Part shown: piece after piece, positions 26,556 to 45,318 of the stretch | Position numbering within the stretch: the first letter of the stretch is position 1 | How the letters are laid out: every line of letters starts with the position of its first letter | Assembly: GCA_903937035.1 (NCBI GenBank) | Contig: CAIZXS010000009.1 | Coordinates: 11,141 to 75,140, forward strand | Direction of reading: 5' to 3' | Source of the DNA: an uncultured bacterium | GTDB taxonomy: Bacteria > Patescibacteriota > Minisyncoccia > Moranbacterales > UBA2206 | DNA length: 64,000 bases | Program-made: the position numbers and the translations under genes | The notes under the pieces: generated by a model | Databases searched by the model: none | What the model saw: the letters and a program-made list of their open reading frames with translations, nothing else | Told to the model about the DNA's origin: nothing

Positions 26556-27668
26556 ATGGCCAAACGTGAACGACATGGAGTGAATAAAAATTTACTTTTC
26601 GTAGTGCTTCTCCTCATTACTTTTGGCCTGGCAATGATCGCTTCAGCCGGAATTGCCTATTCTCGCAGTCGCTTCGGAGATTCCTATTATTTCTTTAAAC
26701 ATCAACTTTTCTACGGTGTTTTGCCAGGATTTTTTGTTTTATATGTCACGCAAAAAATTGACTACAACTTTTGGAAAAAAATTGCCTTCCCCCTTTTTAT
26801 CTTAAGTATTTTCTTTCTCGTTTTAGTCTTTGTGCCAGGAGTCGGCTCGAAGATATATGGCGCGAGCCGCTGGCTTCAATTGGGTCCGTTTTCTTTTCAA
26901 CCTTCGGAAATGTTGAAATTGTCGATCATTATCTATCTCTCGGCTTGGCTCGAAAGTCGCGCTGAAAAAGTGAAAGATTTCTATGAAGGCTTGATTCCCT
27001 TTCTTGCCGTGGTGGGAGTTGTCAGTTTTCTTTTGGAAAAACAGCCAGACATGGGAACGCTAGGCGTAATCATTTTTATTGCCATGTCAATATTTTTTAT
27101 TTCAGGCGCTCGACTCTCACATATGTTTATGATCGCTGCTTCTGGATTTGCCGCGCTTGCCATTCTCATTAAATTTGAATCCTATCGCATGGATCGTTTT
27201 TTGGTATTTCTTCACCCCGAACTTGATCCGCGCGGGATTGGCTATCAAATCAATCAAGCGCTTCTTGCAATCGGTTCCGGGGGAATTTTTGGAGTGGGAT
27301 TAGGCCATAGTTTGCAAAAATTCAACTATTTACCGGAACCGGTGGGCGATTCAATTTTTGCTATTATTGGAGAGGAGCTTGGGATGATTGGTGTTGTTTC
27401 GTTGGTTTTATTATTTTTGTCTCTTGCGATGATTGGCTTTCGGATTGCCAAGAATGCCCCTGATCGCTTTTCCCAACTCACGGCGATTGGCATTACATGC
27501 TGGATCACTTTTCAAGCTTTCATTAACATCTCAGCTATCTCCGGACTCATTCCACTCACCGGTATTCCATTACCATTCATCAGTTACGGCGGAACATCAC
27601 TGGTTTTTTTGATGGCAGGAATCGGGGTGCTTTTGAATATTTCCAAACAGACGAGTTTGAATAATTGA
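26556..27668 (+). CDS. SEDS-family peptidoglycan glycosyltransferase (FtsW/RodA)
   Basis: 370 aa, ~10 TM helices, conserved 'PEPVGDSIFAIIGEELGMIG' and 'PLPFISYGGTS'. Confidence 0.85.
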   Translation: MAKRERHGVNKNLLFVVLLLITFGLAMIASAGIAYSRSRFGDSYYFFKHQLFYGVLPGFFVLYVTQKIDYNFWKKIAFPLFILSIFFLVLVFVPGVGSKIYGASRWLQLGPFSFQPSEMLKLSIIIYLSAWLESRAEKVKDFYEGLIPFLAVVGVVSFLLEKQPDMGTLGVIIFIAMSIFFISGARLSHMFMIAASGFAALAILIKFESYRMDRFLVFLHPELDPRGIGYQINQALLAIGSGGIFGVGLGHSLQKFNYLPEPVGDSIFAIIGEELGMIGVVSLVLLFLSLAMIGFRIAKNAPDRFSQLTAIGITCWITFQAFINISAISGLIPLTGIPLPFISYGGTSLVFLMAGIGVLLNISKQTSLNN

Positions 27669-27692: not shown

Positions 27693-28526
27693 ATGAGTGA
27701 AAAAATGGGAAACGGAGGAGAAATTCTTTTTACGAGGCATAGTAAGGCAAAGTATGGAACCTACGGAGAAGCAGTTAAATCGGAGAATCCGGAGGCCCCT
27801 CATGATCCAAACAGGCAATTGGAGAATGATTTGCCAGAAGCGGGGATTGAGCTAGCGAGAAAAAAAGCAGAAGAACTCTTCGCGACAATGAATCCGGAAA
27901 CGGACGCGCTATTTTTTGCATCCAGCAAAGAGATGCGAGCGTTTGAGACCGCTAAAATTTATCGGGACATTGCCAAGGAAAAAGGTTTTGAAATTATTAT
28001 TCCCTATACCGAAGAAAACAAGGAAAAAAAGAGCGGCATAACCAGAAAATTAGCCGACGAAAATATCAAAGCAATTGACAGTCTATCGCTGAAAATTCCA
28101 AATTCATTAGTGGGAAATGTGTTTAATCCGGAAGCGTACTTGGGTGAAATCAATTGGAGTGCAGTTGACGAAGAGACTAAGCGAAAATGGAAAGAAGCGA
28201 GAGAAATAATCAACTCGGATGATCAAGGGTCATGGGGCGCTAATTTCTATAAACATTCAGAGGCGATCCAAAAAATATTTCCCGAAATAAAATCTTCCCG
28301 AGATGAATATGCAACAACTTTTCAAAAATTATTAAGACTTACTGAATTTGCTCAAAATAAGATTAAAGAAGTCGGGCATGGTAAAAATGTAAAAGTGCTA
28401 TCTTTTGGTCATGAAAACTACATGGGATATGCAATGAATAAATATTTGGGAGATCATAATTTGGGCAATTGCGAGACTGTTTCAATTGATGTGGATGGGA
28501 AAGAGCTTATTAAAAAAAGAAGTTAG
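27693..28526 (+). CDS. Histidine phosphatase superfamily (PGM/SixA branch)-like protein
   Basis: 277 aa. 'LFTRHSKAKYG' (RHG-like), 'LFFASSKEMRAFETAKI' (like the SP.xRAxQTA motif) and a second His in 'VLSFGHENYM'. Paralogous to 37413-38258. Confidence 0.5.
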   Translation: MSEKMGNGGEILFTRHSKAKYGTYGEAVKSENPEAPHDPNRQLENDLPEAGIELARKKAEELFATMNPETDALFFASSKEMRAFETAKIYRDIAKEKGFEIIIPYTEENKEKKSGITRKLADENIKAIDSLSLKIPNSLVGNVFNPEAYLGEINWSAVDEETKRKWKEAREIINSDDQGSWGANFYKHSEAIQKIFPEIKSSRDEYATTFQKLLRLTEFAQNKIKEVGHGKNVKVLSFGHENYMGYAMNKYLGDHNLGNCETVSIDVDGKELIKKRS

Positions 28527-28557: not shown

Positions 28558-30057
28558 ATGAAAGAACTTAAAAAGAATAAGTATAAAATTTTGCGTAACA
28601 GGAGGGTGATGCCGCTTCCTGCGATTTGGAATGGCAAAAGCCAATCGAGTGAGGGCGCAAGAAATATCCATCATGTCGCTCTAAAAAAGATCTGGAATTA
28701 TCTTGAAAATGAAGAAATAATCGCATTTTACATAGGAGAGGAGTGGACTGATATTGGAGAATATATCGCAAAAAGAATGATTGAGGATAAAAAGTATATT
28801 CCCAATGTGTATAAGCTGCAAAGGGAAAGGGGGAGATTCTTGGTTTTGCTTTCAAAGGAAATCCGAAGATTGAAATTGGGCAATCTCAATTTAGACCAAC
28901 TTTTTGCGGAGTATCAAAAAATTGAAAATGCGTGGGTTGATTTTGATCATGTTAATATGCCGACTTGGCTTATCGGAGGTGAATATTTTCAAATAAAGCT
29001 CAAAAACAAGCTGGGTATGTTGGGTATATCAGAAGAAGAGATATATACACTTTTGACACCGAATGAATTATCCTTCAGTGCAAAGGAAGAGTTGGGAATT
29101 TTGAAAATAGCGCTAAAATTAAAAAGTGATTTGCGAAGCAATAAGAAGTGGATTCTTTCAGGTGATGCAAGGAGGGGCATGGCTGCATTGGTAAAAAAAT
29201 ATCATTGGATTCCTTTCGGTTATGATGGTCCAGATCTTTATGATACAAAGTATTATGAAAAAGCCGTGCGAGAAATGGTGGAAAAAATGAATTCAAGAGA
29301 AATTAAGCAAAAAATTGAAAAAATAGACAGCTACAGCTCGAAAATAAAAGAAAGGCAGGGAAAAATTTTTGCAAAATATCACTTATCGAAAGAGCTGAGA
29401 AGACAGATCAAAATCATCCAGACCTTAGCCAAAATGACGGACGAACGAAAGGAGTATACTTTTCAATCGCACATTGCATTTCAAGGTGTAATAGAACATA
29501 TAGCACGAATCTTGGGGCATGATTGCTTGGTGCTAAAGCATCTTATTTTGGATGAGATTAGGCAATATCAGAATGATCCGAAAAAAATTATTAAGTTGGG
29601 AGAAGAAAGAATGAAAAGCCCTGTGATGTTTTATAGGCATGATGGGAAGCTGGACATTATCACTGGCCCAAGAGCGAAAAAAATGTTCAAAGAAATGATT
29701 GGAGAGGATGTCGCTTCGGATGGTTTGATTTTAAAAGGCAGTGTGGGAAGCAAGGGGAGTGTTCCAATTGTGCGAGGAATCGTTAGAATTCTTAGTACAC
29801 CGCAAGAGATGAATAAATTAAAAGACGGAGAAATTTTGGTGACGGCGATGACTACGCCGGAATATGTTCCGGCGATGCGTCGCAGCCTCGCCATCATCAC
29901 CGACGAAGGCGGCGTGACGTGTCACGCGGCGATTGTGAGCCGCGAGCTGGGAAAGCCTGCGATTATCGGCACAAAAATCGCGACAAAATTTTTGAAAAAC
30001 GGAGAGTTCATTGAAATGGATATGAAAAAAGGCCAAATAAAAAAACTAGCCCAATGA
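28558..30057 (+). CDS. PEP-utilizing-enzyme mobile (swivel phosphohistidine) domain protein with a ~380-aa helical N-terminal domain; no ATP-grasp domain
   Basis: The C-terminal 100 aa 'GEILVTAMTTPEYVPAMRRSLAIITDEGGVTCHAAIVSRELGKPAIIGT' match the phosphohistidine swivel domain of PEP synthase, PPDK and rifampin phosphotransferase. Confidence 0.75.
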   Translation: MKELKKNKYKILRNRRVMPLPAIWNGKSQSSEGARNIHHVALKKIWNYLENEEIIAFYIGEEWTDIGEYIAKRMIEDKKYIPNVYKLQRERGRFLVLLSKEIRRLKLGNLNLDQLFAEYQKIENAWVDFDHVNMPTWLIGGEYFQIKLKNKLGMLGISEEEIYTLLTPNELSFSAKEELGILKIALKLKSDLRSNKKWILSGDARRGMAALVKKYHWIPFGYDGPDLYDTKYYEKAVREMVEKMNSREIKQKIEKIDSYSSKIKERQGKIFAKYHLSKELRRQIKIIQTLAKMTDERKEYTFQSHIAFQGVIEHIARILGHDCLVLKHLILDEIRQYQNDPKKIIKLGEERMKSPVMFYRHDGKLDIITGPRAKKMFKEMIGEDVASDGLILKGSVGSKGSVPIVRGIVRILSTPQEMNKLKDGEILVTAMTTPEYVPAMRRSLAIITDEGGVTCHAAIVSRELGKPAIIGTKIATKFLKNGEFIEMDMKKGQIKKLAQ

Positions 30058-30120
30058 TAGTGTGAACACAAGGTTCACGATATATCATTAGGCTAGCGAC
30101 GTAGTTGGTTGGTTTGCCAA

Positions 30121-30624
30121 TTACATTTGGAGTGCGGGGTCAAAAACTCCATATGCAATCATCTGATCAATCTGACGAATTTCTCCGTCATTACAGAGGA
30201 TGCGATATACTGCCGCGCTCTTTCCGTTGATGCCCAAGGCGATCATGAAAGGTCTGCCGGAACAAACCACAGTTTTATCTGCAAGCCCTGTGATAAACCT
30301 TTTTGCAGATACGGAGTTGTCGGCGAGGGAGGTGTACAGGGCGATATTGATATGGGTTCCATCGGACAGGATTACAATTTTTTCACCGTCAATGACTTCC
30401 ATGCTGTCGGGATCGCCAACAACGGAAGAATAACGACGGATTTCATTGTAATTCAGTGCTGTGGCCACATCAAGATGGCGTCCCCCGGTTCCAACAACCA
30501 AAACGGGTATTTTTACGGGAAGGAGGTGGCGGAGAGATGCGATTTCTTCAAATCCCTTGGGAGTCATGCGGGGATTTGGGCCATTAGTCTTATCACCATG
30601 AGTTACTACAAAAATTTCGTTCAT
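30121..30624 (-). CDS. Small SixA-like histidine-phosphatase-fold protein (degenerate RHG as THG)
   Basis: 167 aa. 'FVVTHGDK', then 'MTPKGFEEIASL', then 'VLVVGTGGRHLDVATAL', matching the SixA layout RHGDA...PLT.xG...LVSPFxRAxQT. Assignment is tentative. Confidence 0.35.
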   Translation of the reverse strand: MNEIFVVTHGDKTNGPNPRMTPKGFEEIASLRHLLPVKIPVLVVGTGGRHLDVATALNYNEIRRYSSVVGDPDSMEVIDGEKIVILSDGTHINIALYTSLADNSVSAKRFITGLADKTVVCSGRPFMIALGINGKSAAVYRILCNDGEIRQIDQMIAYGVFDPALQM

Positions 30625-30714
30625 TCTCGGGTCCTTTCATAATTGCTATTGGTTTGTAAAATGTACTTCCAAGCTTTTTATTTTAACTGCTAATTATATA
30701 TCAAATTCAGCTAA

Positions 30715-33700
30715 TTGTCAAGCCGTCGCTTAGCTAGAGCTGATTTGAGCCTCAATATGCTTACAAAAAACTTCCAACAACTATCCAAATCAGACGCTCA
30801 AATCGCCGGTGGCAAAGGTGCGTCACTTGGCGAAATGACAAACGCGGGAATTCCAGTTCCACCCGGCTTTGTCGTGCTTTCTGATGCTTTCGAACAGTTC
30901 CTTGCCGAAACGGATTTGAATGTGGAAATTGAGGCAATTCTCAAAACTGTGGATAATCAGAAAATGCATACGGTGGAAAATGCGTCAGAAGAAATTCAAG
31001 CGCTAATTCTCCAAGCTAAGATGCCGGAAGATATTGCAAAAGAGATTCAGGAAAACTTCAAAAAACTAGATGCCAAGTTTGTAGCCGTGAGATCAAGTGC
31101 CACCGCCGAAGATGGTGCAGAAGCGGCCTGGGCTGGGCAGCTAGACAGTTATCTCAATACGAACCAAGAAGCACTTCTCAGAAACGTCCAAAAATGTTGG
31201 GCGTCACTTTTCACGCCGAGAGCCATCTTTTATCGCTTTGAAAAAAAACTGCACAAGCAAAAAATATCCGTGGCAGTGGTCGTGCAAAAAATGATCCAAA
31301 GTGAAATTTCTGGCATCGCTTTTTCCGTTCATCCAGTCACCGAGGATTATAATCAAATGATTATCGAAGCTGGCTTTGGTTTGGGCGAAGCGATTGTTTC
31401 CGGGTCAATTACGCCGGATGCCTATGTGGTGAGCAAAAATCCGAGAAAAATAGAGGACATCAATATTTCCCAGCAGCCCAAGGGACTTTTTAGAAAAAAA
31501 GATGGCGGAAATGCCTGGCAAGATATTCCCGAGAAAGAAGGCAAAAAACAAAAACTATCAAAAAAACAAATCCTGGAATTGTCAGATCTAATCATAAAAA
31601 TCGAAGACCACTATCAATTCCCGGTGGACATTGAGTGGGCATATGAAAACAAGAAATTCTATATTGTGCAATCGAGACCGATTACGACGCTTATCAAAAA
31701 GTTGGGAGATATGCCAAAGAAAAATGTTGGCAGTGGAAGTGGAATCTTGGAGAATAATTTAGGCAAAAAGGATGGAAAAGTAATTGGGAAATTGTCGGAC
31801 TACCAACAAATGTTTAAATGGCAAAATTCTCTTCCTTATCTCGTAACGTCACTTTTTTTGACTTACTATAAAAAATTAGATGTTTTGATTCTGTCTGATC
31901 CTAAGTTGTGGGTAGCATATTTGCCTCTATCGAAAATGGAAAAAACTCACCAAGATGGGTTTAAGATTTATGGTGACAAAAAAAGATATGCAGAGTATAG
32001 GGATGACTTTAAGAAGTATATGGAAAATTCCGAGAAGTTCTTTAAGAATGTTATCCACAGTAAAGATTTGGACAAAAGCCAGACAAGAGAATTCTTGAAT
32101 AGGGTGGCAAAACTTTTTTCGTATTATTCAAAAGCAGAATTTTTTTATACTGAAAAGGCATACTTTGAGCAGGAGAATAACCTGGCTATCAAAGAAAATT
32201 TTGCAACTTTTGAGCAGCTAAAAATAGATGGTCGAAAATTTTTGAATAAAATATTTTTCGAAAAAGATACCTACTTGCTCCAACTAATGAATAGATTATC
32301 CGAAAAATTCAAAATTTCATCAGATTTTCTTCTGACATATAATCAACAAGAAATTCTCGATTTGTTTGAGGGGGGTATTGTGGATGAAAAAATAATTTTG
32401 CAAAGAAAAAGAGCGTATATTTCAAAAGGAAAAAAGGAGGGGATTGCTAGTTATCATGGAACGGAAGCGGAGAAAATGATTAAAGAATTTAATTCGGAGC
32501 AATCTGAAAGCGGAAATGTGTTGAAAGGGCAAGTTGCCAATAAGGGATATGCGAAAGGCGAAGCTCGAGTTTTTAAATTTGGCTTGAATGATTTTCATCT
32601 ATTGAAAGAAATGATTGATTCTATGAAAAAGGGAGAAATATTGGTAGCTGAAACTACGGCGCCTGAAATAATGGTAGCTTGCCAAAAAGCTAGCGCTATC
32701 GTGACTAATCAGGGAGGCATGATGAGTCATGCAGCGATTATTTCACGAGAAATCGGCATCCCGTGTATTGTGGGGACAAGTATTGCAACAGAGGTTATCC
32801 AAAATGGCGATTTGGTGGAAGTGGATGCTAATGAGGGAGTGGTGAGAATTTTAAGAAGAAACTCTGATGAAGAAAGTGGAATTGTTTTCAACAAAAAGTA
32901 TGAGCGTGTTTTTGGCGGACCGAATATGTCGTTTCTAATTTCGGATATTATTACGGATGTGTATGCCCCAAAATATGGATTCGTGACGATGTATAAAAAT
33001 TCCATTTGGACATGCTACATGCCCATTGAAGAAAAAAACAAAACTTTAGCAGAAGGAGCGGAGTTGTATGAGAATATGGAGAAGTATGAGGAATTTAGAA
33101 GTGAATATCTGAAATTTATTGATGCTTATGATAAACACTTTCGCGAAATATTTAATCCAAATAAAGTTATTACCAAAGAAATATTTGAAGCGCTTATTGA
33201 TCTATTTAAAAAAGCGGAGTCATATTATGCATATACGCAATATTTCTACACCGATGGGATTTCCCAAGCAAATAAAGAATTTGAAGTAGAATTTGGAGCT
33301 CTCAAAGAAAAGGGTCGAGAACTTTTGAATAGGCAATATTTTTCTGGCAATAATTACCTAAACGAAGTCCTTGAGGCAGTTTCTAAGATAATAGCTATTA
33401 AAAAAGATGAACTGTATAATTATGCCTGGCAGGATATTAGTTTGCTTTGGAATAGCAATAATGCCAAAAAAGACATTCGTAAATGGGAAACTTATGTCAC
33501 GTATCCAATAAATGGGTCCAAGAGCACTGCCTTTGAATCGGAAGCTTTGGAAATTATTGATCAATTTTTATCAAATCATAACGATCACCGTGAAATACTG
33601 AGTGGCACGGTTGCCAATAGGGGCAAAGTCGTGGGTAATGCTTATGTTCTTGATAAGGGCTATGATCACAGGGGTATCGGAAAATTTATTGATGAGATGG

Positions 33701-35241
33701 AAAAAGGCGCTATTCTTATCACTGAGACAACTTCGCCTGAGATCATGACTGCTTGCGAGAAAGCCAGCGCAATTGTGGCTAATCAAGGAGGACTGATGTC
33801 GCACGCCGCCATCGTTTCTCGGGAATTAGACATCCCTTGCATTGTCGGATTGGAGGGAGCGACTGAAATTATAAAGAATGGTGATTTGGTTGAAGTGGAT
33901 GCGGATAATGGAATCGTTAGGATTTTGGAAAAGGCGAAAAATGATGAATATTTCAAGTTCAAATTTCCGGCCTATCGGTATTTTATGGCAAATAGGCTGA
34001 TTCCTACTTTTAAATATGAAGGGGTCTATTTATGGGGGGAGATATTTGGCGAATATTCTTTCGATGGTATACACAGAACTTGCACTAATAAAAACGTTCT
34101 CCTTGAGCCGGGAAAAAAACTTTTTGCGCTACTGAAAAAAGGTGATCAAAAACTGGAAAAAGAACTTCTTGCGCTTGTGAATAAGATTATTCCATTGGCA
34201 AGAGATCTTCAAGAAATTATCTTGAGAGATAAGCTCACCGGTCATGTTTCCAATCTCAATGATTTTTTCCCCAATTACGAGAAAGTATTCAATAAAGCCT
34301 TGGCGTTCGGTTATCCTCTTGATTATGCTATTGATGAATATCTCAAGAAAGATGCTTCGCTCTCAGAAAATTTGCAATCCCCATACAGTTCTTTTTTGAT
34401 GGAGGAGGAATATGAATTGTATGAAATATTTTCAAAAAAATATAAAAAACCAGAACTAGGCAGGGCACTTGAGCGCCACCTGGCGAAATATGCTTGGATT
34501 AAATCTGATTATCAAGGAGAAAATGTGCTGACAATTGATGATTTATATGCAAAAGAAGCTCGGCTGATGGATACGAAACAGGAAAAAACCAAAAGTGTCG
34601 GTGGAAAAATTTCCGCTCCAAAAAATTTGCAGGAATGGATTTCTCTTCTGATATATTTGAGAGATGTGAGAAAAAAAGTAGGGATGATTGGTGTGGTTTT
34701 GCTAGACCGATATTTAAAGCAGGAATGTCAAAGATTGAAAAAAGATTATCTGAAAGCCAGACTGTTATCGGTGGCAGAGTTTGAGCAGTATAAAAATAAA
34801 AAACTTCCGGAATATCTGGACAAAAGAAATGAACGCATGTCTCCTGATGGCATAGAAATTATACCCAATGAAAAATGGCAAAAGTATCCCTTTAATCAAG
34901 AAGTGGTGGTGGACAAGGAAAAGCTTTTAACAGGAGTGGTTGCCAATAAAGGTAAGGTTAAGGGAATAGCAAGGATAATCATTGGAAAACACGATTTTCA
35001 TAAGATGGGAAAAGGAGAGATTATCGTTGCTTCAATGACTAGACCGGAATTTATGCCAATTCTCAGAAAAGCTTCTGCCATACTAACTGAGCAGGGTGGC
35101 ATCACTTGTCACGCAGCGATTATCTCAAGAGAGTTGGGTGTGCCTTGTATTATTGGTATCGAAAATCTGACAGCGGCATTGAAGGACGGAGATTTGGTGG
35201 AAGTAGACGCGGATAATGGGGTGGTTAGAATTTTGAAATAA
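30715..35241 (+). CDS. Giant multidomain phosphotransferase: PEP-synthase-type N-terminal ATP-grasp (PPDK_N) domain plus three [helical domain + swivel phosphohistidine domain] modules
   Basis: 1508 aa; the track ORF starts at a TTG at 30715, and the first ATG is at 30757. Residues 1-325 match PEP synthase/RPH ATP-binding domains ('AQIAGGKGASLGEM', 'VAVRSSATAEDG', 'FSVHPVTED', 'YIVQSRPIT'). Swivel domains with catalytic His lie at ~nt 32560-32850 (QGGMMSHAAIISRE), 33600-33920 (QGGLMSHAAIVSRE) and 34920-35238 (QGGITCHAAIISRE). Confidence 0.8.
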   Translation: MSSRRLARADLSLNMLTKNFQQLSKSDAQIAGGKGASLGEMTNAGIPVPPGFVVLSDAFEQFLAETDLNVEIEAILKTVDNQKMHTVENASEEIQALILQAKMPEDIAKEIQENFKKLDAKFVAVRSSATAEDGAEAAWAGQLDSYLNTNQEALLRNVQKCWASLFTPRAIFYRFEKKLHKQKISVAVVVQKMIQSEISGIAFSVHPVTEDYNQMIIEAGFGLGEAIVSGSITPDAYVVSKNPRKIEDINISQQPKGLFRKKDGGNAWQDIPEKEGKKQKLSKKQILELSDLIIKIEDHYQFPVDIEWAYENKKFYIVQSRPITTLIKKLGDMPKKNVGSGSGILENNLGKKDGKVIGKLSDYQQMFKWQNSLPYLVTSLFLTYYKKLDVLILSDPKLWVAYLPLSKMEKTHQDGFKIYGDKKRYAEYRDDFKKYMENSEKFFKNVIHSKDLDKSQTREFLNRVAKLFSYYSKAEFFYTEKAYFEQENNLAIKENFATFEQLKIDGRKFLNKIFFEKDTYLLQLMNRLSEKFKISSDFLLTYNQQEILDLFEGGIVDEKIILQRKRAYISKGKKEGIASYHGTEAEKMIKEFNSEQSESGNVLKGQVANKGYAKGEARVFKFGLNDFHLLKEMIDSMKKGEILVAETTAPEIMVACQKASAIVTNQGGMMSHAAIISREIGIPCIVGTSIATEVIQNGDLVEVDANEGVVRILRRNSDEESGIVFNKKYERVFGGPNMSFLISDIITDVYAPKYGFVTMYKNSIWTCYMPIEEKNKTLAEGAELYENMEKYEEFRSEYLKFIDAYDKHFREIFNPNKVITKEIFEALIDLFKKAESYYAYTQYFYTDGISQANKEFEVEFGALKEKGRELLNRQYFSGNNYLNEVLEAVSKIIAIKKDELYNYAWQDISLLWNSNNAKKDIRKWETYVTYPINGSKSTAFESEALEIIDQFLSNHNDHREILSGTVANRGKVVGNAYVLDKGYDHRGIGKFIDEMEKGAILITETTSPEIMTACEKASAIVANQGGLMSHAAIVSRELDIPCIVGLEGATEIIKNGDLVEVDADNGIVRILEKAKNDEYFKFKFPAYRYFMANRLIPTFKYEGVYLWGEIFGEYSFDGIHRTCTNKNVLLEPGKKLFALLKKGDQKLEKELLALVNKIIPLARDLQEIILRDKLTGHVSNLNDFFPNYEKVFNKALAFGYPLDYAIDEYLKKDASLSENLQSPYSSFLMEEEYELYEIFSKKYKKPELGRALERHLAKYAWIKSDYQGENVLTIDDLYAKEARLMDTKQEKTKSVGGKISAPKNLQEWISLLIYLRDVRKKVGMIGVVLLDRYLKQECQRLKKDYLKARLLSVAEFEQYKNKKLPEYLDKRNERMSPDGIEIIPNEKWQKYPFNQEVVVDKEKLLTGVVANKGKVKGIARIIIGKHDFHKMGKGEIIVASMTRPEFMPILRKASAILTEQGGITCHAAIISRELGVPCIIGIENLTAALKDGDLVEVDADNGVVRILK

Positions 35242-35276
35242 AAAAACAGCCCAATCTCTCGCAGGAGATTGGGCTG
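35241..35276 (-). terminator. Terminator (T-run on the minus strand) after the LMW-PTP gene; may also pause plus-strand transcription from the giant gene
   Basis: CAGCCCAATCTC-tcgcag-GAGATTGGGCTG, with an A7 run on the plus strand, which is a T7 run on the minus strand. Confidence 0.6.
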
Positions 35277-35288
35277 AGGTTGTGGCGG

Positions 35289-35735
35289 TTATTTTTCAGA
35301 AAACCGGCGCGTTACCACCCTGTACATCTTGGCCATGACGTTTTCGGCAACTTCGTCATGGTCTCGCTGGTCGCTGGATGGCCAGGGGTTGGAGAGTTGA
35401 ATGTTAAAGATCTTTTCGGTTGGTACCTTATACTTCCCGAAAAGTTCTCCGGCTACCGTCTCATCCACGCAAACGATGAGTTCATATCGTGATAGATCAA
35501 GTGAGCCGACCCATCTTTTCTGGTGGCCAGAGAGATCAAGCCCTAACCGTTTGGCAGAAACTACGCCATTAGGACTGGCGGAGCCACCGTTCTTGGTGAA
35601 CTCCATCATTCCAGCGCTTTCTACCGTAACTTCATGGCCAGCGTTTTGGAGATACATCCCCAGAACGGCAGCCATAAGCGGGCTGCGATCGGAATTGCCA
35701 ATACATACACAAAGAACTTGTTTGATATTAAGCAC
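35289..35735 (-). CDS. Low-molecular-weight protein tyrosine phosphatase / arsenate-reductase-fold phosphatase
   Basis: 148 aa with an N-terminal P-loop 'VLCVCIGNSDRSPLMAAVL' (CX4-5R, CxGNxxRS signature). Confidence 0.75.
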   Translation of the reverse strand: MLNIKQVLCVCIGNSDRSPLMAAVLGMYLQNAGHEVTVESAGMMEFTKNGGSASPNGVVSAKRLGLDLSGHQKRWVGSLDLSRYELIVCVDETVAGELFGKYKVPTEKIFNIQLSNPWPSSDQRDHDEVAENVMAKMYRVVTRRFSEK

Positions 35736-35897: not shown

Positions 35898-37388
35898 ATG
35901 GAGAGGAAAAATAGCTATCAAAAAATGTGGGGAGCGCACGCGATGGGCGTTTTTTGGGGTGAGCTGGTGATGCGCAATTTTTCTAGGAAGAATAAATATA
36001 AAACGGTGGCCGGTATCAGCGAAAAAAACGCTGTTTTTTATTATCACAAAAGCGTGGGAACAGCATTTTATAATTCAGTTCCCGAAATGGACGTATCGGG
36101 CGCAATTGGTCGGGAAAGATTTTCTAATCAAAAAGAACTAAAGAAATATATTGAAAATTCCAAGGAGGCTATTGGAAAATCTGATGCATTGTATTTTGAC
36201 GTGTTAAAAGAAGACTTAGATAAAAAGAACGCTAGAGCGCTTTTCAACCTATTGGAAGCGCAAGCAGATTGTTTTAATGAGATATACAGCTACTATCATG
36301 CTTGTCAGCCACAATATTTTTCTGAAATAGAAAAAGATATAAAATTATATCTGGCTAAAAAAGGACTGAGTCGAGAGGCTAATTATTATATCGGCTTACT
36401 TTCTTCTCAGGAAGAATTGGATGTGATCGCCAAAGAGGAAGTTGAATGGCTGACTATTGCCAGGATGATGCAAGAAAAAAAGTTAGATAGGGCTTCATTG
36501 GTCGAAGCTAGCGAGATGGAAAATAAATTAAAAAGGCATATTGATAAATATATGTCTTTAGGTAGCGGGGAGGGAGGGCGACCATGGGATAAAAAGTATT
36601 ATTGGGGTATTTTTGAAAAAATTGATTTTGATATTAATAAGAAGATATCAGATATTAATGAAAGAAAAAAAGTCTTAATGCAAGAAAAAGAGGCATTTAT
36701 TCGGGAGAAAGAAATTTCCAATGAGGTCGTGGAACTTGCCAATGCCGTGGGAAAACTTGGCATGCTGCGATTGGAGATTCGTCTCAGTTGGATGCGGTTT
36801 AGTCACACTATTACCAACACGCTTTTAGCGCTGGGGAAAGAAATTAGTCTTGATAATATCTTGGAAATAAGGATGGATGAAATCAGGAACATAATAGAAA
36901 ATAACGATCATGCAGTGACGGAAGAAGAAATAAAAAGACGCCAGGAAGCCTTTTTGTTTTTAGTTGAAAATGAAGAGGAAAAATTATTCATTGGAAATGA
37001 AGCGATTAGTCTCAAGGAAAAGCTTGTGCCTTCCGAGATTTCAGACACTTTGGAGATAAAAGGATTTGTGGCTTGCAAGGGTATGGTTCGAGGGAAAGTT
37101 TTTATGATTGATTGGAATAATAAAAATCTGACTGAAGCGATGAGAAACATGGCGGAAGGAGCTATTCTAATAGCTGGACAAACCAGACCTCAGCTTATGC
37201 CAGTTATCAAAAAAGCGGCGGCGATTGTAACTGATGAAGGAGGGATTATGTGTCACGCTGCTATTGTTTCCCGTGAGCTCAACATTCCTTGCATCATCGG
37301 CACCAAAATCGCTACCCAAGTTCTCAAAGATGGTGATTTGGTGGAGGTTGACGCAAATGAGGGAATTGTTAGAATTATAAAGAATTAA
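35898..37388 (+). CDS. PEP-utilizing-enzyme mobile domain protein (helical N-domain + swivel phosphohistidine domain)
   Basis: 496 aa with C-terminal 'GAILIAGQTRPQLMPVIKKAAAIVTDEGGIMCHAAIVSRELNIPCIIGT'. Same modular layout as 28558 and 38277. Confidence 0.75.
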   Translation: MERKNSYQKMWGAHAMGVFWGELVMRNFSRKNKYKTVAGISEKNAVFYYHKSVGTAFYNSVPEMDVSGAIGRERFSNQKELKKYIENSKEAIGKSDALYFDVLKEDLDKKNARALFNLLEAQADCFNEIYSYYHACQPQYFSEIEKDIKLYLAKKGLSREANYYIGLLSSQEELDVIAKEEVEWLTIARMMQEKKLDRASLVEASEMENKLKRHIDKYMSLGSGEGGRPWDKKYYWGIFEKIDFDINKKISDINERKKVLMQEKEAFIREKEISNEVVELANAVGKLGMLRLEIRLSWMRFSHTITNTLLALGKEISLDNILEIRMDEIRNIIENNDHAVTEEEIKRRQEAFLFLVENEEEKLFIGNEAISLKEKLVPSEISDTLEIKGFVACKGMVRGKVFMIDWNNKNLTEAMRNMAEGAILIAGQTRPQLMPVIKKAAAIVTDEGGIMCHAAIVSRELNIPCIIGTKIATQVLKDGDLVEVDANEGIVRIIKN

Positions 37389-37412: not shown

Positions 37413-38258
37413 ATGGAACAAAACGAATCAAGTATGTTTATGACTCGGCACACGATAAAGCCCAAAGGCGAGGATCTTAAATCGGAAAGATATCCTGGCG
37501 CGTCTGAGCGTGGCGTAGATTTGGCAAAAGAGAGAGCGAAGGAAGAGATCTTGAGTTTGATTGAAAAGGCAAAACCAGGAACAGTGGTGATTATTAGCGG
37601 TGCGTCTGAAGTGGACAGAACAAAATCAGCCGGAGAAATATATGGGGATGAGCTCCAGGAGTTACTCAAGGATAATCCGGGCTATCTGGTTGTCACAAGA
37701 AGCGAAGTTCAAGACATGTTGAGTCAAAAAGATGGCAAGGCACTTGATAAATTAGCAGAAATTGTTAGAAGTAATCCTGATAAAAAGATTGTTATTGATT
37801 TTCCATTATTCTTGAAAGAATTTGGTTTCGGTGCTGGGAGGTGGACAGAAAAAGATGGAAATCTTACAAAATATTTTCAAGCATTGTTAGAAAAACACAA
37901 TAATGATGAAATGGCATGCGTCAAGGATTGGATTGAAAATGAAGGACGCATTGATGGGTCGTCTTTGCAAGGACCGAATCCAGCTGAGATGGCAAAAGAG
38001 CACATCGAGGGACTAAAAAGAATTAATGATTTTGCTCGAAAACTGATTGGAGGGAGTCGGCCAATTATGGTGGGCGGTGTAGGGCATAGTGTGAATTTGG
38101 ATGCTACCGCAATATATTTGTCCAATAATGGTCAAGTAACAATGGAGGGATTTGAAAAACTAGGTGGGGAGTTGATAAAAGAAACCGAACTGATGCAGTT
38201 AGAGACAAAAGATGGAAAGACCATCTTCAATTACAGAGGCAAGGAATTTATTGTTTAG
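37413..38258 (+). CDS. Histidine phosphatase superfamily-like protein (paralog of 27693)
   Basis: 281 aa. 'FMTRHTIKPKG', 'VVIISGASEVDRTKSAGEI' and a second His in 'MVGGVGHSVNLDATAI'. Confidence 0.5.
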   Translation: MEQNESSMFMTRHTIKPKGEDLKSERYPGASERGVDLAKERAKEEILSLIEKAKPGTVVIISGASEVDRTKSAGEIYGDELQELLKDNPGYLVVTRSEVQDMLSQKDGKALDKLAEIVRSNPDKKIVIDFPLFLKEFGFGAGRWTEKDGNLTKYFQALLEKHNNDEMACVKDWIENEGRIDGSSLQGPNPAEMAKEHIEGLKRINDFARKLIGGSRPIMVGGVGHSVNLDATAIYLSNNGQVTMEGFEKLGGELIKETELMQLETKDGKTIFNYRGKEFIV

Positions 38259-38276: not shown

Positions 38277-39722
38277 ATGGATATGACTTGGAAAATTTAT
38301 ACACGAGGAACAATTTTCCCTCACTCATTCTCACTTTCCTTTAAAGCGCATCAGCTGTCAGAAAAGCTGATTGGCTTTAATTTTCTAGCTTTCTTCTATA
38401 TTAATATTGAAGATAAATTGTGGTGGGCATGGAAAGAAGACGATGTTCTTTTCCTAGGCGCTTCAATCCTCAAAAGATGTGAGACGAAGAGGGGGCAAGA
38501 AAGGGATTTTAAGAAATTTGATGAATTTTGCAAAAGAGCGCTAAAAGCGGCGGATAAAGTAAGAAGGATGGATCTGGGAAAATTTAGTGACAGAGAGTTG
38601 CTCGGACTGTACGATTATATTTACAAAGAATCTGCCAACGCGCATGGTCTCATGAATCCCTATATCGACGTAATTGATGTTGTTTTTGAAGATTTTTTGA
38701 TGGAAAAAATTAAGACTGAATTGAAAGCTGCAACAGAAGCTGAGGCGCTGAATGTTTACAAAGAGCTAACTGTCCCAAGCTGTTTGACGTATTTGATTAG
38801 AGAAGAAGAGGATATTATTCGAGGTATTATTAGTGGAAAATCAGTTGGGGAAATAGCTAAAACTATTTTTAAGAAATATTGGTGGATAAGTCTTGGGTGG
38901 GAAAATATGCATCCCCATAGCGAGCAGTATTTTGCGAAAAAAATTACAAAACATTTCAAGCTCAAAAATTTAGCTGAACGCTTGGGGAAAATAAAAAGCT
39001 ATGGTCGGGAGATAAAAAACAAAAGAAAAATAATAATCAAGCAATATGGGTTGTCAAAAAATATTGCGTATTGGCTGGATGTCTTGGACGAGCTGGCCTA
39101 TTATCATGATGTGAGAAAAGAGATGCAAATGAGAACTGTTTATGCGTCGCATCAGGTGCTGGAGGAGATTAGTAAGAGGATTGGTATTCCAGTGAAAAAT
39201 CTATTGTGGTTTTGGGAAGATGAGGTGAAAGAATTTTTGTTAAACAAATCGTTTGACAGGGAGGAACTAGAAAATAGAAAAAAAGCCTTTTTTAGTGTAG
39301 TGTATAAGGGTAGCACTTCTTGGTTATCAGGAGAGAAGGCTCTCAGTGAAAGCAAGAAGTATATTGGCCTAGAAAATGGGAAACATGATTTGGTAAGGGA
39401 ATTTAGGGGTTTTGCCGCATCCAAGGGGATGGTGAGGTCAAAAGTGAAAGTGTGCGCGGGATATGTAGAAGCTTTAAAGAAGGTAAAAAAAGGTGAAATT
39501 TTAGTGTGTGGAATGACTACACCTGACTATGTTCCTGCTATGCGAAAAGCTTCTGCTATAATAACAGATGAGGGTGGTATTACTTGCCATGCTGCGATTA
39601 TCAGTAGGGAGCTGGGCATTCCCTGTGTCGTGGGAACAAAAGTCGCTACTCAAGTTTTACATGATGGTGATTTGGTCGAGGTTGATGCGAATGTGGGAAT
39701 TATTAGAATTTTAAATAACTAA
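38277..39722 (+). CDS. PEP-utilizing-enzyme mobile domain protein (helical N-domain + swivel phosphohistidine domain)
   Basis: 481 aa with C-terminal 'GEILVCGMTTPDYVPAMRKASAIITDEGGITCHAAIISRELGIPCVVGT'. Confidence 0.75.
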   Translation: MDMTWKIYTRGTIFPHSFSLSFKAHQLSEKLIGFNFLAFFYINIEDKLWWAWKEDDVLFLGASILKRCETKRGQERDFKKFDEFCKRALKAADKVRRMDLGKFSDRELLGLYDYIYKESANAHGLMNPYIDVIDVVFEDFLMEKIKTELKAATEAEALNVYKELTVPSCLTYLIREEEDIIRGIISGKSVGEIAKTIFKKYWWISLGWENMHPHSEQYFAKKITKHFKLKNLAERLGKIKSYGREIKNKRKIIIKQYGLSKNIAYWLDVLDELAYYHDVRKEMQMRTVYASHQVLEEISKRIGIPVKNLLWFWEDEVKEFLLNKSFDREELENRKKAFFSVVYKGSTSWLSGEKALSESKKYIGLENGKHDLVREFRGFAASKGMVRSKVKVCAGYVEALKKVKKGEILVCGMTTPDYVPAMRKASAIITDEGGITCHAAIISRELGIPCVVGTKVATQVLHDGDLVEVDANVGIIRILNN

Positions 39723-39891: not shown

Positions 39892-40995
39892 ATGCGTATC
39901 ATTCTTGCTGGAGGAGGAACTGGTGGACATCTTACACCGCTTGTGGCGGTGGCGAGGAAGATCAGAGAAAAAGTTCCTGAAGTCGAGTTTTGTTTCATTG
40001 GACCAAAAGGAAAATTAGAAGATGATATTATGGGGCAAGAAAATATTCCTATTAGAAATATCCAGACAGGAAAGTTGCGACGCTATTTTTCTTTTCGAAA
40101 CATCTTGGATTTTTTCAAAATTCCATTGGGAATCGTGAAATCCATGTGGCTTTTATTGGTGTTGATGCCTGACGCCATTTTTTCCAAGGGAGGCTACGCT
40201 TCGTTTCCTGTCGTTGTCGCTGGTTGGCTATACCGCATTCCAATCCTCATTCATGAGTCTGATTCCAACCCGGGCTTGGCCAATTCGATGCTGGGAAAAT
40301 TTTCCAGCCGTGTTGCTGTGTCATATATGGAAGCAGAGAAATATTTTCCGGCTGCGCAGGTTGTGCTCACGGGAAATCCATTACGCGATAATATTAATAA
40401 GGGTAGCGTTGAAAAGGCACGACAATTTTTAGGTTTCACTGAATCACGAAAGATTATTTTTGTTTGGGGTGGGTCACAGGGAGCAAAGAATATCAATGAC
40501 AAAATCGTGCGTCTTCTTCCTCGGCTTTTGCATAAGTATCAGGTTGTTCATCAGGTTGGTGAAAATAATTTCGAGGAAGTTAGTCGTATGGCAGGGGAGC
40601 TTGGTTATAAGGTGGGGCATGATGGCTATTTTGCCGCGCCATTTTTCAAAGAAGAGCTAATAGATATTTTGGCAGCTGCGGATTTGGTCATTTCGAGGGC
40701 GGGGAGCACTTCTATTGCAGAAATCGCCGCCAATAAAAAACCGGCTATTATTATTCCATTGGAGACTTCTGCTAGTGATCATCAAAGAATGAATGCCTAT
40801 TCTTTGGCACGAATCGGTGGTTGTGTAGTGATGGAGGAAAATAATATGGGGGAGCATATGTTATTGGAAAAAATTGATGAAATTATGGATAACGAAACAT
40901 TGCGCAATAACCTCTCCGCAAATATCGGGACATTTTATCATCCGGATGCGGCAGAAAAAATCGCAGATGGAATTTTAGGAATGATTAAAGAATAA
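39892..40995 (+). CDS. murG: Undecaprenyldiphospho-muramoylpentapeptide beta-N-acetylglucosaminyltransferase
   Basis: 367 aa. 'MRIILAGGGTGGHLTPLVAVA' and C-terminal 'GAGSTSIAEIAANKKPAIIIP' motifs. Adjacent to murC. Confidence 0.85.
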   Translation: MRIILAGGGTGGHLTPLVAVARKIREKVPEVEFCFIGPKGKLEDDIMGQENIPIRNIQTGKLRRYFSFRNILDFFKIPLGIVKSMWLLLVLMPDAIFSKGGYASFPVVVAGWLYRIPILIHESDSNPGLANSMLGKFSSRVAVSYMEAEKYFPAAQVVLTGNPLRDNINKGSVEKARQFLGFTESRKIIFVWGGSQGAKNINDKIVRLLPRLLHKYQVVHQVGENNFEEVSRMAGELGYKVGHDGYFAAPFFKEELIDILAAADLVISRAGSTSIAEIAANKKPAIIIPLETSASDHQRMNAYSLARIGGCVVMEENNMGEHMLLEKIDEIMDNETLRNNLSANIGTFYHPDAAEKIADGILGMIKE

Positions 40996-41004
40996 AATAA
41001 CTAT

Positions 41005-42399: not shown

Positions 42400-42418
42400 A
42401 AATATAGTAAAAATAAAA

Positions 42419-45265: not shown

Positions 45266-45318
45266 TTTGGATGGTTTTTGTGTTAGAATGGTAGTATAAA
45301 TAGAGCCAAGATAATTAT

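Follow-up and report, generated by a model that had tools for sequence, protein, structure and literature searches.

One ATP-binding domain and three divergent acceptor/swivel units in a 1494-residue protein from a widespread, uncharacterised system of ultra-small bacteria and archaea

The characterised structures of PEP synthase (PEPS), PPDK and RPH that we matched each show a single phosphohistidine swivel domain, in keeping with what had been said of these enzymes. A gene predicted to encode one nucleotide-binding domain and three swivels in series raises the questions of whether it is real and what its product might do. We analyzed a 64,000-nucleotide stretch of contig CAIZXS010000009.1 (the window), in which the ORF listing confirmed a 1508-codon reading frame from TTG (30715..35241, + strand) and Pfam bore out one ATP-grasp domain and three [domain + swivel] units in a single chain. 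The original prediction had left the start open between TTG 30715 and ATG 30757. The ATG is favoured as the probable start, because the N-termini of homologues align to this Met and public gene calls give 1494 aa; the TTG is part of a sequence that, on the other strand, matches a sigma-70-like promoter at 12/12 positions. That no in-frame TGA occurs was true, but only by construction; the standard code is supported independently by the use of TGA as stop in 9 of the 32 long ORFs in the window. Collapsed or duplicated repeats had also been raised as a possibility. However, two independent per-run assemblies (ERR4225396 and ERR4210593) contain the entire locus with the same nucleotide sequence, and the repeat copies in the gene share only 60-70% DNA identity, which excludes an assembly artefact; public assemblies contain the identical 1494-aa protein (P0001). 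The gene is thus real, and its product is a 1494-residue enzyme that combines a single ATP-binding domain with three divergent acceptor/swivel units. It forms the core of a locus of 12 kb (27.7-39.7 kb) that sits as an insertion between ftsW and murG. Its features are given below; Pfam positions and His and Arg residues of the big protein are numbered for the ATG form.

30757..35241, + strand: candidate multi-module dikinase gene, 1494 aa plus stop, from ATG 30757 (ORF list, Pfam domains)
30757..31695, + strand: PEPS-like ATP-grasp nucleotide-binding domain, aa 1-313 (PF01326, E 1e-100)
31696..31779, + strand: disordered tether between ATP-grasp and module 1, aa 314-341, 28 aa (AF2 pLDDT <50)
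31780..32517, + strand: acceptor domain 1, short type, aa 342-587; Arg493 at nt 32233-32235
32518..32868, + strand: swivel phosphohistidine domain 1, aa 588-704; His658 at nt 32728-32730 (PF00391, GGMMSHAAI)
32869..33594, + strand: acceptor domain 2, short type, aa 705-946; Arg854 at nt 33316-33318 (GRELLN; AF2 fold)
33595..33939, + strand: swivel phosphohistidine domain 2, aa 947-1061; His1016 at nt 33802-33804 (PF00391, GGLMSHAAI)
33940..34908, + strand: acceptor domain 3, longer type, related to standalone module A, aa 1062-1384; Arg1305 at nt 34669-34671
34909..35238, + strand: swivel phosphohistidine domain 3, aa 1385-1494; His1452 at nt 35110-35112 (GGITCHAAI)

Pfam placed PPDK_N at aa 15-316 (E 1e-100) and three PEP-utilizers stretches behind it (PF00391, summed E 5.5e-73; best stretch for swivel 3, 1419-1488), and found no match to the PEP-utilizers_C TIM barrel (PF02896) in the 1494-aa protein. 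The catalytic residues His658, His1016 and His1452 were set by GGxx[SC]HAAI motifs, which are present in all six swivels of the window, and a domain of 240-320 aa, predicted to be folded, precedes each of the three in-chain swivels. K20, R112 and S131 of the ATP-grasp domain aligned with RPH K22, R117 and T136, and the solved structures that matched this domain best were archaeal PEPS (8a8e, E 5e-90), RPH (5fbs) and, also strongly, HpeI (9goj). In the AF2 model acceptor domains 1 and 2 were confidently folded (pLDDT mostly 85-96 for the block of acceptor domain 1), and the linkers between modules were short, with ~5 low-confidence residues at 704-708.

Pipeline naming would make this protein an ordinary PEPS or PPDK. 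These enzymes share with it homologous ATP-grasp and swivel domains and the same His-motif consensus, many homologues are named PEPS/PPDK by JGI, and the PEP synthase model NF005057 (NCBIfam) reached a summed score of 628.5 against a cut-off of 598. However, that cut-off was passed only because three swivels were summed; the C-terminal PEP/pyruvate half of the model went unmatched, as did PF02896, and TIGR01418 stayed under its cut-off (596 vs 740). PEPS and PPDK further differ in carrying the PEP/pyruvate TIM-barrel, in lacking multiple swivels and in placing the swivel before the acceptor domain, whereas here it follows. An ordinary PEPS/PPDK, or an assembly or gene-fusion artefact, is refuted by the absent PEP-binding domain together with the independent assemblies, and we assign these readings practically no probability.

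The domains that precede the swivels had been called linkers. We reject this label, as they are cut-down, divergent versions of the RPH substrate-binding domain, of its acceptor-binding type and with the catalytic Arg kept. The top Foldseek match was full-length RPH (E 1e-35, ~900 colinear columns), acceptor domain 1 being colinear with the RIF-binding domain, and in a profile alignment R493 fell on RPH R666, which is among the residues critical for the second phosphotransfer (PMC4844700). When the three in-chain and three standalone modules were aligned, the Arg column was filled in 6 of 6, with an Arg-to-His spacing of 147-165 aa compared with 159 in RPH. The best-conserved acceptor positions over 203 modules were this Arg (78%), a Glu (79%) and a second Arg (90%). 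The likeness is nevertheless partial: the helical core differs, the sequence alignment is confined to roughly the C-terminal 170-250 residues of the modules, and the Arg-Glu...Lys triad of RPH is incomplete in part (R-K-F in module 1, R-E then N in module 2, R-K-K in module 3).

As had been proposed, the acceptor domains of the chain are only weakly alike (21-31% identity; 26% over 224 aa between the first and second), while swivels are 39-62% identical to one another. The modules also proved old and divergent, as the nearest relatives of each acceptor domain are modules of other genomes (31-57%, up to 76%) and not its neighbours in the same protein, and the order of modules is shuffled between genomes. 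Acceptor domain 2, in which K850, R854 and N858 are invariant in A1, recovered as sole query 133 cluster representatives, mostly ~360-aa standalone modules. Altogether, 208 modules fell into about 60-100 BLAST clusters, so hypervariable are the acceptor domains, whereas ATP-grasp domains from CPR and DPANN share 64-68% identity. Conserved swivels and ATP-grasp beside variable acceptor domains would fit one docking partner with many specificities.

Three standalone module genes, also foreseen, are present nearby, each with one C-terminal PF00391 domain, and phosphatase genes lie among them:

27693..28526, + strand: divergent His_Phos_1-like gene, 277 aa, directly upstream of module A
28558..30057, + strand: standalone module A, long acceptor domain and swivel, 499 aa; Arg297, His456 (PF00391)
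35289..35735, - strand: LMWPc low-molecular-weight phosphatase gene, convergent with the big gene; CX5R(S) loop CIGNSDRS
35898..37388, + strand: standalone module B, 496 aa; Arg291, His453 (PF00391, six-module alignment)
37413..38258, + strand: divergent His_Phos_1-like gene, 281 aa, between modules B and C
38277..39722, + strand: standalone module C, 481 aa; Arg280, His438 (PF00391), of a conserved ~477-aa family

Fused modules elsewhere (P0041_m2 and P0103_m3, 31%) are homologous to module A from end to end, and positions 206-497 of module A matched 1250-1507 of the big protein at 33% identity (BLAST). Module C gave a predicted structure with pLDDT 94 and pTM 0.92, and its many conserved charged and aromatic residues include R10, D131, H277, R280, K281, Q284, R334 and several Trp. 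The 277-aa and 281-aa genes belong to the same family of neighbour genes. Although the 277-aa gene has no Pfam match of its own, PF00300 matched 20 of 31 family members, in which RH..G..R is invariant and the H nearly so. Of the 42 His_Phos_1-family genes in the fetched loci, 36 are no more than 500 bp from a system gene and the remainder are all within 5 kb; close homologues of the 281-aa gene adjoin the system in four loci (L035, L038, L046 and L056). The LMWPc gene (PF01451, 45 bits vs a cut-off of 23.2) recurs as a neighbour in 6 other loci, and in all 7 cases its distance from the system is at most 500 bp.

The architecture had been described as unusual, which holds among characterised enzymes only; it is common in CPR bacteria and DPANN archaea. 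Of the best 120 database relatives, 118 carry 2-5 catalytic-His motifs, relatives are encoded in at least 588 species-representative genomes, and the system occurs just as frequently in DPANN archaea. The gene thus belongs to a widespread, uncharacterised system of ultra-small bacteria and archaea, and our literature search found no paper describing it. Related loci range from fully split, with a 313-aa ATP-grasp protein and 7-8 module genes, to fully fused, the extreme being 2,967 aa with six swivels in one chain. A standalone ~313-aa ATP-grasp lies beside up to 7-8 standalone modules in 29 of 84 non-redundant loci, and the same module type is free in one genome and fused in another. Since 83 of the 84 have exactly one ATP-grasp, this domain apparently serves up to ten acceptor/swivel units. 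This level of organisation, with its split-to-fused continuum, single ATP-grasp per locus and dedicated phosphatases, was absent from the original prediction.

RPH-Lm (PDB 5FBS, 5HV1) is the top structural match of both models and has the same order of ATP-grasp, substrate-binding domain and C-terminal swivel His, with R666 and its spacing to the His kept. Its dikinase chemistry, ATP to AMP + Pi + X-P (PMC4844700), is the one that we propose for the window protein. However, RPH has one module, compared with three in chain and three free-standing here; the acceptor domains here are shorter (240-390 aa vs ~430 aa) and superpose only in part; the ATP-grasp is nearer to PEPS; and the system has its own linked phosphatases. 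A set of RPH-like modules, each inactivating a different antibiotic or toxin from hosts or neighbours, would agree with the closest structure, with the hypervariable acceptor domains, with the name 'rifampicin phosphotransferase' that JGI gives to some homologues, and with the counting of CPR 'rph' genes as resistance genes (PMC8651080). Yet the RPH NCBIfam models scored far below their cut-offs (445 vs 999 and 315 vs 1700), the RIF-binding part aligned in part only, DPANN archaea carry the system as often, the dedicated phosphatases would undo the inactivation, and the conserved charged and aromatic residues of module C suit a polar ligand better. We regard this explanation as quite improbable.

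For the split layout, the closest known systems are the two-component small-molecule dikinases HpeHI, CreHI and PpsAB (phenylphosphate synthase). In each, one protein contains the ATP-grasp and charges, in trans, a second protein made of acceptor domain and swivel (PMC12167813). Our standalone modules and the loci with a free ATP-grasp match this layout, but the ratio is 1:1 in those systems, 1:6 at this locus and up to 1:10 elsewhere. HpeH/PpsA-like PRK08296-type models matched the swivel part only, far under their cut-offs, and no pathway genes for aromatic catabolism, where phenols are the acceptors, were seen here.

Altogether, we favour with moderate confidence a multi-module dikinase of the PEPS/RPH superfamily that acts as a one-to-many small-molecule hub. 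ATP would be bound by the single PEPS-like ATP-grasp domain; a swivel would dock on it, its catalytic His would attack the beta-phosphate, the gamma-phosphate would be lost as Pi and AMP released. The charged swivel would then return to its own acceptor domain, the RPH-type one on its N-terminal side, where the conserved Arg (the R666 equivalent) may help to move the phosphoryl group to the bound acceptor, giving X + ATP + H2O -> X-P + AMP + Pi overall. Charging would occur in cis at His658, His1016 and His1452 and in trans on modules A, B and C, so that a single nucleotide site would drive six different phosphorylations, presumably of small molecules that differ between modules. Charging in trans is suggested by the Rosetta-stone pattern of one ATP-grasp per locus with the same module types fused or free. 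The His_Phos_1 and LMW phosphatases could take the phosphate off again, from products or from phospho-histidines, and dikinase and phosphatases might together form a controlled phosphorylation/dephosphorylation cycle. A parallel is plant starch turnover, in which the dikinases GWD/PWD and the dedicated phosphatases SEX4/LSF2 cycle one substrate class; the plant enzymes differ in domain order, carbohydrate-binding modules, polymer substrate, single swivel and eukaryotic origin. Several points count against the hub reading. The acceptor domains resemble that of RPH only in part and do not all keep its triad complete, and at least one RPH-like protein, PspR, is a DNA-binding repressor. Internal swivels are tethered at both ends by short linkers, which makes the route of the distal swivels to the ATP-grasp puzzling; a dikinase spends two ATP equivalents per phosphorylation, a strange outlay in organisms short of energy; and phosphatases dedicated to the system would produce a futile cycle unless regulated.

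The swivels also resemble those of enzyme I and pyruvate kinase. They might phosphorylate other proteins, in the way that HPr is phosphorylated by PTS enzyme I, or the acceptor domains might bind macromolecules, the linked enzymes then being phosphoprotein (pHis, pTyr or pArg) phosphatases that reset a relay. Both phosphatase families include protein phosphatases, LMWPc being a phosphotyrosine-phosphatase family and SixA being among the PDB matches of the His_Phos_1 profile, and the RPH-like PspR now works as a repressor that binds DNA (PMC10948481). However, the Arg that RPH uses for phosphotransfer is retained in most of the 203 modules, as are the conserved Glu and second Arg, the profile prefers the small-molecule phosphatases PhoE, CobC, phosphoserine phosphatase and PGM over SixA, and no HPr-like or receiver-like gene recurs beside the system. 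Such a phosphorelay or regulatory device is therefore unlikely, although conceivable.

The reaction might instead run backwards, the modules taking phosphoryl groups from varied energy-rich metabolites and the ATP-grasp making ATP from AMP and Pi. The hosts are fermentative, energy-limited symbionts, PEPS and PPDK run in the ATP-forming direction in some anaerobes and archaea, and the ATP-grasp is closest to an archaeal PEPS. In addition, HpeH alone moves phosphate reversibly between product and substrate (PMC12167813). Against this, the PEP-binding barrel is absent, ordinary phosphate esters are unable to drive ATP synthesis and the tightly linked phosphatases would waste the donors, making energy scavenging improbable in our estimate.

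Finally, one more gene and two candidate regulatory signals flank the big gene:

30121..30624, - strand: 167-aa ORF, function unassigned, divergent from the big gene (public gene predictions)
30693..30721, - strand: 12/12 sigma-70 match, TTGACA-17-TATAAT, facing the 167-aa ORF and overlapping the rejected TTG (consensus only)
35247..35276, strandless: GC-rich hairpin with a 12-bp stem, between the convergent stops of the big and LMWPc genes

The 167-aa ORF, and not a 177-aa + strand ORF, is probably the real gene of its interval, because public predictions call it, the perfect promoter-like site faces it and its homologues lie near the system (within 500 bp in L012, L072 and L079). Like the His_Phos_1 and LMW phosphatase genes, it is tightly linked to the system. 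The total of promoter-like sites in the region was not above that of shuffles. With an A-run before it and a T-run after it, the hairpin is likely a bidirectional terminator.

We first considered the ORF at 30715-35241 on the plus strand, here called the big gene, whose product was predicted to carry a single ATP-grasp domain followed by three swivel domains. Pfam searches bore this out, as one PPDK_N domain and three PEP-utilizers domains were found. PPDK_N covered aa 15-316 of the form starting at ATG 30757 (E-value of 1e-100; PF01326 score of 337.6 bits vs a cut-off of 27), and the ATP-grasp residues K20, R112 and S131 aligned with K22, R117 and T136 of rifampin phosphotransferase (RPH), with Ser replacing Thr. 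Three separate stretches matched PF00391, and their swivel residues His 658, 1016 and 1452 lie in GGMMSHAAI, GGLMSHAAI and GGITCHAAI, respectively, all of which conform to the GGxx(S/C)HAA motif. Judged by sequence, the protein is a PEP-utilising dikinase superfamily member, having both a PPDK_N-type ATP-grasp and swivels with the catalytic His. The concern that its tandem modules might be an assembly artefact was excluded, because the locus was nucleotide-identical in the independent single-run assemblies ERR4225396 and ERR4210593, and because the repeats are just 60-70% identical at the DNA level. The start codon had been left ambiguous between TTG 30715 and ATG 30757. Both candidates were considered and ATG 30757 was taken as the start, since the N-termini of homologues match the aligned Met, public gene predictions yield 1494 aa, and the TTG sits within a perfect sigma-70-like match on the opposite strand. 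TGA is the stop codon of 9 of the 32 long ORFs in the window, which confirms that the standard genetic code is used.

The locus contains the following features.

26556-27668: ftsW
27693-28526, plus strand: putative divergent histidine-phosphatase (His_Phos_1) gene, 277 aa
28558-30057: standalone module gene A, one swivel (PF00391)
30121-30624, minus strand: 167-aa ORF, divergent from the big gene and overlapping a plus-strand ORF at 30109-30642
30715-35241, plus strand: big gene, ATP-grasp and modules 1-3
35247-35276: GC-rich hairpin with a 12-bp stem, between an A-run and a T-run
35289-35735, minus strand: low-molecular-weight phosphatase (LMWPc) gene, PF01451, convergent with the big gene
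35898-37388: standalone module gene B, one swivel (PF00391)
37413-38258, plus strand: putative divergent histidine-phosphatase (His_Phos_1) gene, 281 aa
38277-39722: standalone module gene C, one swivel (PF00391)
39892-46290: murG, Mur ligase, P-type ATPase and murB

The regions preceding the swivels were originally labeled linkers, a term that proved inadequate, as they are folded RPH-type domains with a catalytic-type Arg. In modules A, B and C, approximately 370-390 residues without Pfam assignment precede the single swivel. An AlphaFold model of aa 1-1066 of the big protein, built from 32 homologues (mean pLDDT of 84.8), showed both inter-swivel regions folded into compact domains of alpha/beta-plus-helical type, with disorder mainly in a 28-residue tether behind the ATP-grasp. 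The top Foldseek match in the PDB was full-length RPH (5hv1), with an E-value of 1e-35 and colinearity over ~900 columns; superposition on RPH extended just ~120-130 residues past the swivel. Profile alignment placed Arg493 of module 1, a nearly invariant residue, on Arg666 of the RPH motif YR666E667YPK670, which is critical for the second phosphotransfer (PMC4844700). When the internal and standalone modules of the window were aligned, this Arg column was filled in all six (contexts GRKF, GREL, VRKK, ERKE, LRLE and VRKE), with Glu at +1 or +2 in four of them and without conservation of an RPH Lys670 equivalent. The spacing from this Arg to the swivel His was 147-165 residues, vs 159 in RPH. 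In a set of 203 modules drawn from about 80 genomes, three acceptor-domain positions were the most conserved: this Arg at 78%, a Glu at 79% and another Arg at 90%, which correspond to R666, E709/E710 and R728 of RPH. The modeled fold and its Foldseek match, together with the alignment, spacing and conservation of the Arg, indicate that the supposed linkers are acceptor-binding domains of RPH type, reduced and divergent, which appear to keep the phosphotransfer core.

The big protein was compared with known dikinases. PEP synthase (PEPS) and pyruvate phosphate dikinase (PPDK) contain a PEP/pyruvate TIM barrel (PF02896), whereas Pfam found no PF02896 match in the big protein; its identity as a PEPS or PPDK is excluded by this lack of a PEP-binding domain. 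NCBIfam PEPS models matched at the ATP-grasp and swivel positions only: NF005057 (PEP synthase) scored 628.5 vs a cut-off of 598, exceeding it solely through the summed triple swivel, and TIGR01418 failed with 596 vs 739.75. Annotation pipelines may nevertheless name such proteins "phosphoenolpyruvate synthase" despite the missing domain. RPH has the order ATP-grasp, substrate-binding domain and C-terminal swivel, which the big protein keeps, but with the acceptor and swivel unit present three times. Its scores against the RPH family models NF041857 (444.6 vs 999) and NF000283 (314.7 vs 1700) were far under the cut-offs. An RPH that acts on multiple antibiotics is unlikely in view of these scores, the commonness of the system in archaea, and the phosphatases linked to it. 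In the two-component dikinases PpsAB, CreHI and HpeHI, the ATP-grasp and the acceptor plus swivel reside on separate polypeptides that act in trans; the window locus has three standalone modules, but its ATP-grasp is fused to modules 1-3. Nor is the big protein a member of the HpeH/PpsA-like subunit family, as the PRK08296-type models NF006149-NF006153 matched the swivel alone, with 59-104 bits vs cut-offs of 578-730.

The architecture was originally considered unusual, and it is so with respect to the solved PEPS, PPDK, RPH and HpeI, which have a single swivel or none, but not with respect to sequence databases. A motif count in the best 120 database relatives gave exactly three His motifs in 30 of them, and two to five catalytic-His motifs in 118 of these 120, with lengths of up to 2,533 aa. 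A genome scan detected relatives in at least 588 species-representative genomes, distributed over many CPR lineages, Woesearchaeota and Nanoarchaeota. The big gene is one ordinary member of an uncharacterised dikinase system of the ultra-small CPR bacteria and DPANN archaea. Exactly one ATP-grasp was present in 83 of 84 non-redundant loci, and up to ten modules per locus. In 29 loci the ATP-grasp is a free protein of ~313 aa, found beside up to 7-8 free module genes (e.g. L017, L037 and L072), and the most swivels fused onto one ATP-grasp was six (L047, 2,967 aa). Module order varies between genomes, and a type that is fused in one genome is encoded as a free module in another. For example, module 1 of the window shares 45% identity with the second module of the homologous protein P0004, and standalone module A, compared along its entire length, shares 31% with fused modules in the homologues P0041 and P0103.

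The suggestion that the modules arose by old duplication and divergence was supported. Acceptor domains of the window modules are only 21-31% identical to one another, in agreement with the weak similarity first noted among them, and are closer to their counterparts in other genomes (31-57%; up to 76% for module C), so the duplications are older than the divergence of these genomes. The acceptor domains fall into size classes of about 230-260 aa and about 340-420 aa, and 208 modules yielded about 60-100 BLAST clusters. Acceptor domain 2 as the sole query in an exhaustive search of 1.84 billion proteins retrieved just 133 cluster representatives. Swivels are 39-62% mutually identical. In loci L004-L087, a sample biased towards query-like sequences, archaeal (DPANN) and bacterial (CPR) ATP-grasp sequences are ~65% identical, which equals the identity within each domain of life. 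These swivel and ATP-grasp values point to strong constraint on shared partner surfaces, and the cross-domain identity is suggestive of gene transfer between bacteria and archaea, of very strong constraint, or of both. A scan of viral contigs gave just two weak (36%) relatives, and therefore the system is not phage-borne. PADLOC defence models gave no meaningful match.

The commonest neighbour of the system was the His_Phos_1 family, with 31 genes identified by single-linkage clustering and 42 by the family HMM in 84 loci. RH, G and R are invariant in this family and T and H nearly so, a signature that assigns it to branch 1 of the histidine-phosphatase superfamily. PF00300 was matched by 20 of the 31 members (best 1e-38). 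The 277-aa and 281-aa proteins of the window, which contain an RHS/RHT motif, a further Arg and a GH motif, have no Pfam match of their own, though they appear to be divergent family members. Against PDB structures, the family profile ranked the small-molecule phosphatases and mutases PhoE, CobC, phosphoserine phosphatase and PGM above the phosphohistidine phosphatase SixA. Of the 42 genes, 36 lie <500 bp from a system gene, 5 at 0.5-2 kb and 1 at 2-5 kb; none was found >5 kb from system genes in 467 kb. A fixed pairing of phosphatase subtype with module subtype was sought and none was seen. In two related loci (L039:12415-14385 and L017:12001-13077), an N-formylglutamate amidohydrolase-type (PF05013) domain is joined to the phosphatase family member or takes its place.

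A second phosphatase type is represented by the LMWPc ORF (PF01451, 45 bits vs a cut-off of 23.2), whose CX5R(S/T) loop reads CIGNSDRS. Six other loci also have this gene, in every case no more than 500 bp from a system gene. NPW is found where the DP general-acid motif is usual. The hairpin that separates it from the big gene is likely a bidirectional terminator. Upstream of the big gene, the minus-strand 167-aa ORF, rather than the plus-strand ORF that overlaps it, is probably the real gene, based on public gene predictions, a facing 12/12 promoter-like site (30721-30693), and homologues that adjoin the system in L012, L072 and L079. Its assignment as a degenerate histidine phosphatase, considered because of a "THG...TPKG...GR" pattern, was not confirmed: the family HMM was silent, hhalign gave just 37% probability over 30 residues, and PDB matches were noise. 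M23/LysM peptidase, Fic, methylase and several unknowns were unconvincing as linked neighbours, being present in at most 2-4 loci each.

By homology with RPH (PMC4844700) and with PpsAB, CreHI and HpeHI (PMC12167813), we propose a reaction cycle in which the ATP-grasp would present ATP, the swivel His would attack its beta-phosphate, the gamma-phosphate would depart as Pi, and AMP would be released. The charged swivel would then return to its own acceptor domain and phosphorylate the acceptor bound there. One ATP site would charge every module of a locus, in this case three in cis and three in trans, as suggested by the one-ATP-grasp-per-locus rule, the continuum of split and fused forms, the trans mechanism documented for HpeHI (PMC12167813), and the conservation of the partners vs the diversity of acceptor domains. 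Reverse, ATP-forming operation of this cycle is conceivable but unsupported. The acceptors would be small molecules that differ between modules, since the modules combine an RPH-type catalytic core with conserved residues specific to each module family, and the linked phosphatases match small-molecule enzymes. A role in protein phosphorelay or regulation is possible, in that protein phosphatases occur in both of the linked families and a haloarchaeal RPH-like protein acts as a repressor (PMC10948481), but the conserved catalytic core of the acceptor domains argues against it. The linked phosphatases may recycle products or reset phospho-histidines.

A full-text literature search found no account of multi-swivel dikinases or of the present CPR/DPANN system, and the nearest mention was of CPR "rph" genes included in a count of resistance genes (PMC8651080). 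In our reading, the system would be an RPH/PpsAB-type dikinase with one-to-many multiplexing and with dedicated phosphatases of its own. To our knowledge, the characterised superfamily members (PEPS, PPDK, RPH, PigC, PpsAB and HpeHI) each have one nucleotide site, one phosphocarrier and one acceptor site. The one-to-many layout, if true, would be a new way of multiplexing a swivelling-domain enzyme, and it raises the mechanical question of how one ATP site is shared among several tethered or free swivels. We tentatively suggest, as a possible but somewhat doubtful overall picture, that CPR and DPANN share a hitherto undescribed system of phosphorylation, which probably spread through inter-domain transfer. 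In this system, one highly conserved ATP-grasp "charger" would serve up to ten variable modules, each with its own acceptor, dedicated phosphatases would form part of it, and it would replace conventional kinases missing from reduced genomes, e.g. by trapping or activating host-scavenged metabolites. The system genes are present in hundreds of species-level genomes and are among the largest genes in many of these ultra-small genomes. As they now carry the labels "PEP synthase", "rifampicin phosphotransferase" or "hypothetical", the system is probably mis-scored in metabolic reconstructions and resistome counts of CPR/DPANN, and knowing the acceptors could partly explain how these symbionts handle scavenged metabolites.

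Finally, the 12-kb dikinase/phosphatase locus of the window lies among cell-division and cell-wall genes, between ftsW and murG. This dcw context (ftsW, murG, murC and murB) is peculiar to the present genome and absent from the related loci examined, and the locus therefore looks like a lineage-specific insertion into a dcw-like cluster. No tRNA, rRNA or Rfam family was detected across the 64 kb of the window by Rfam search at the gathering threshold and a tRNA scan. GC skew was positive over almost the whole window, and the plus strand carries most genes.
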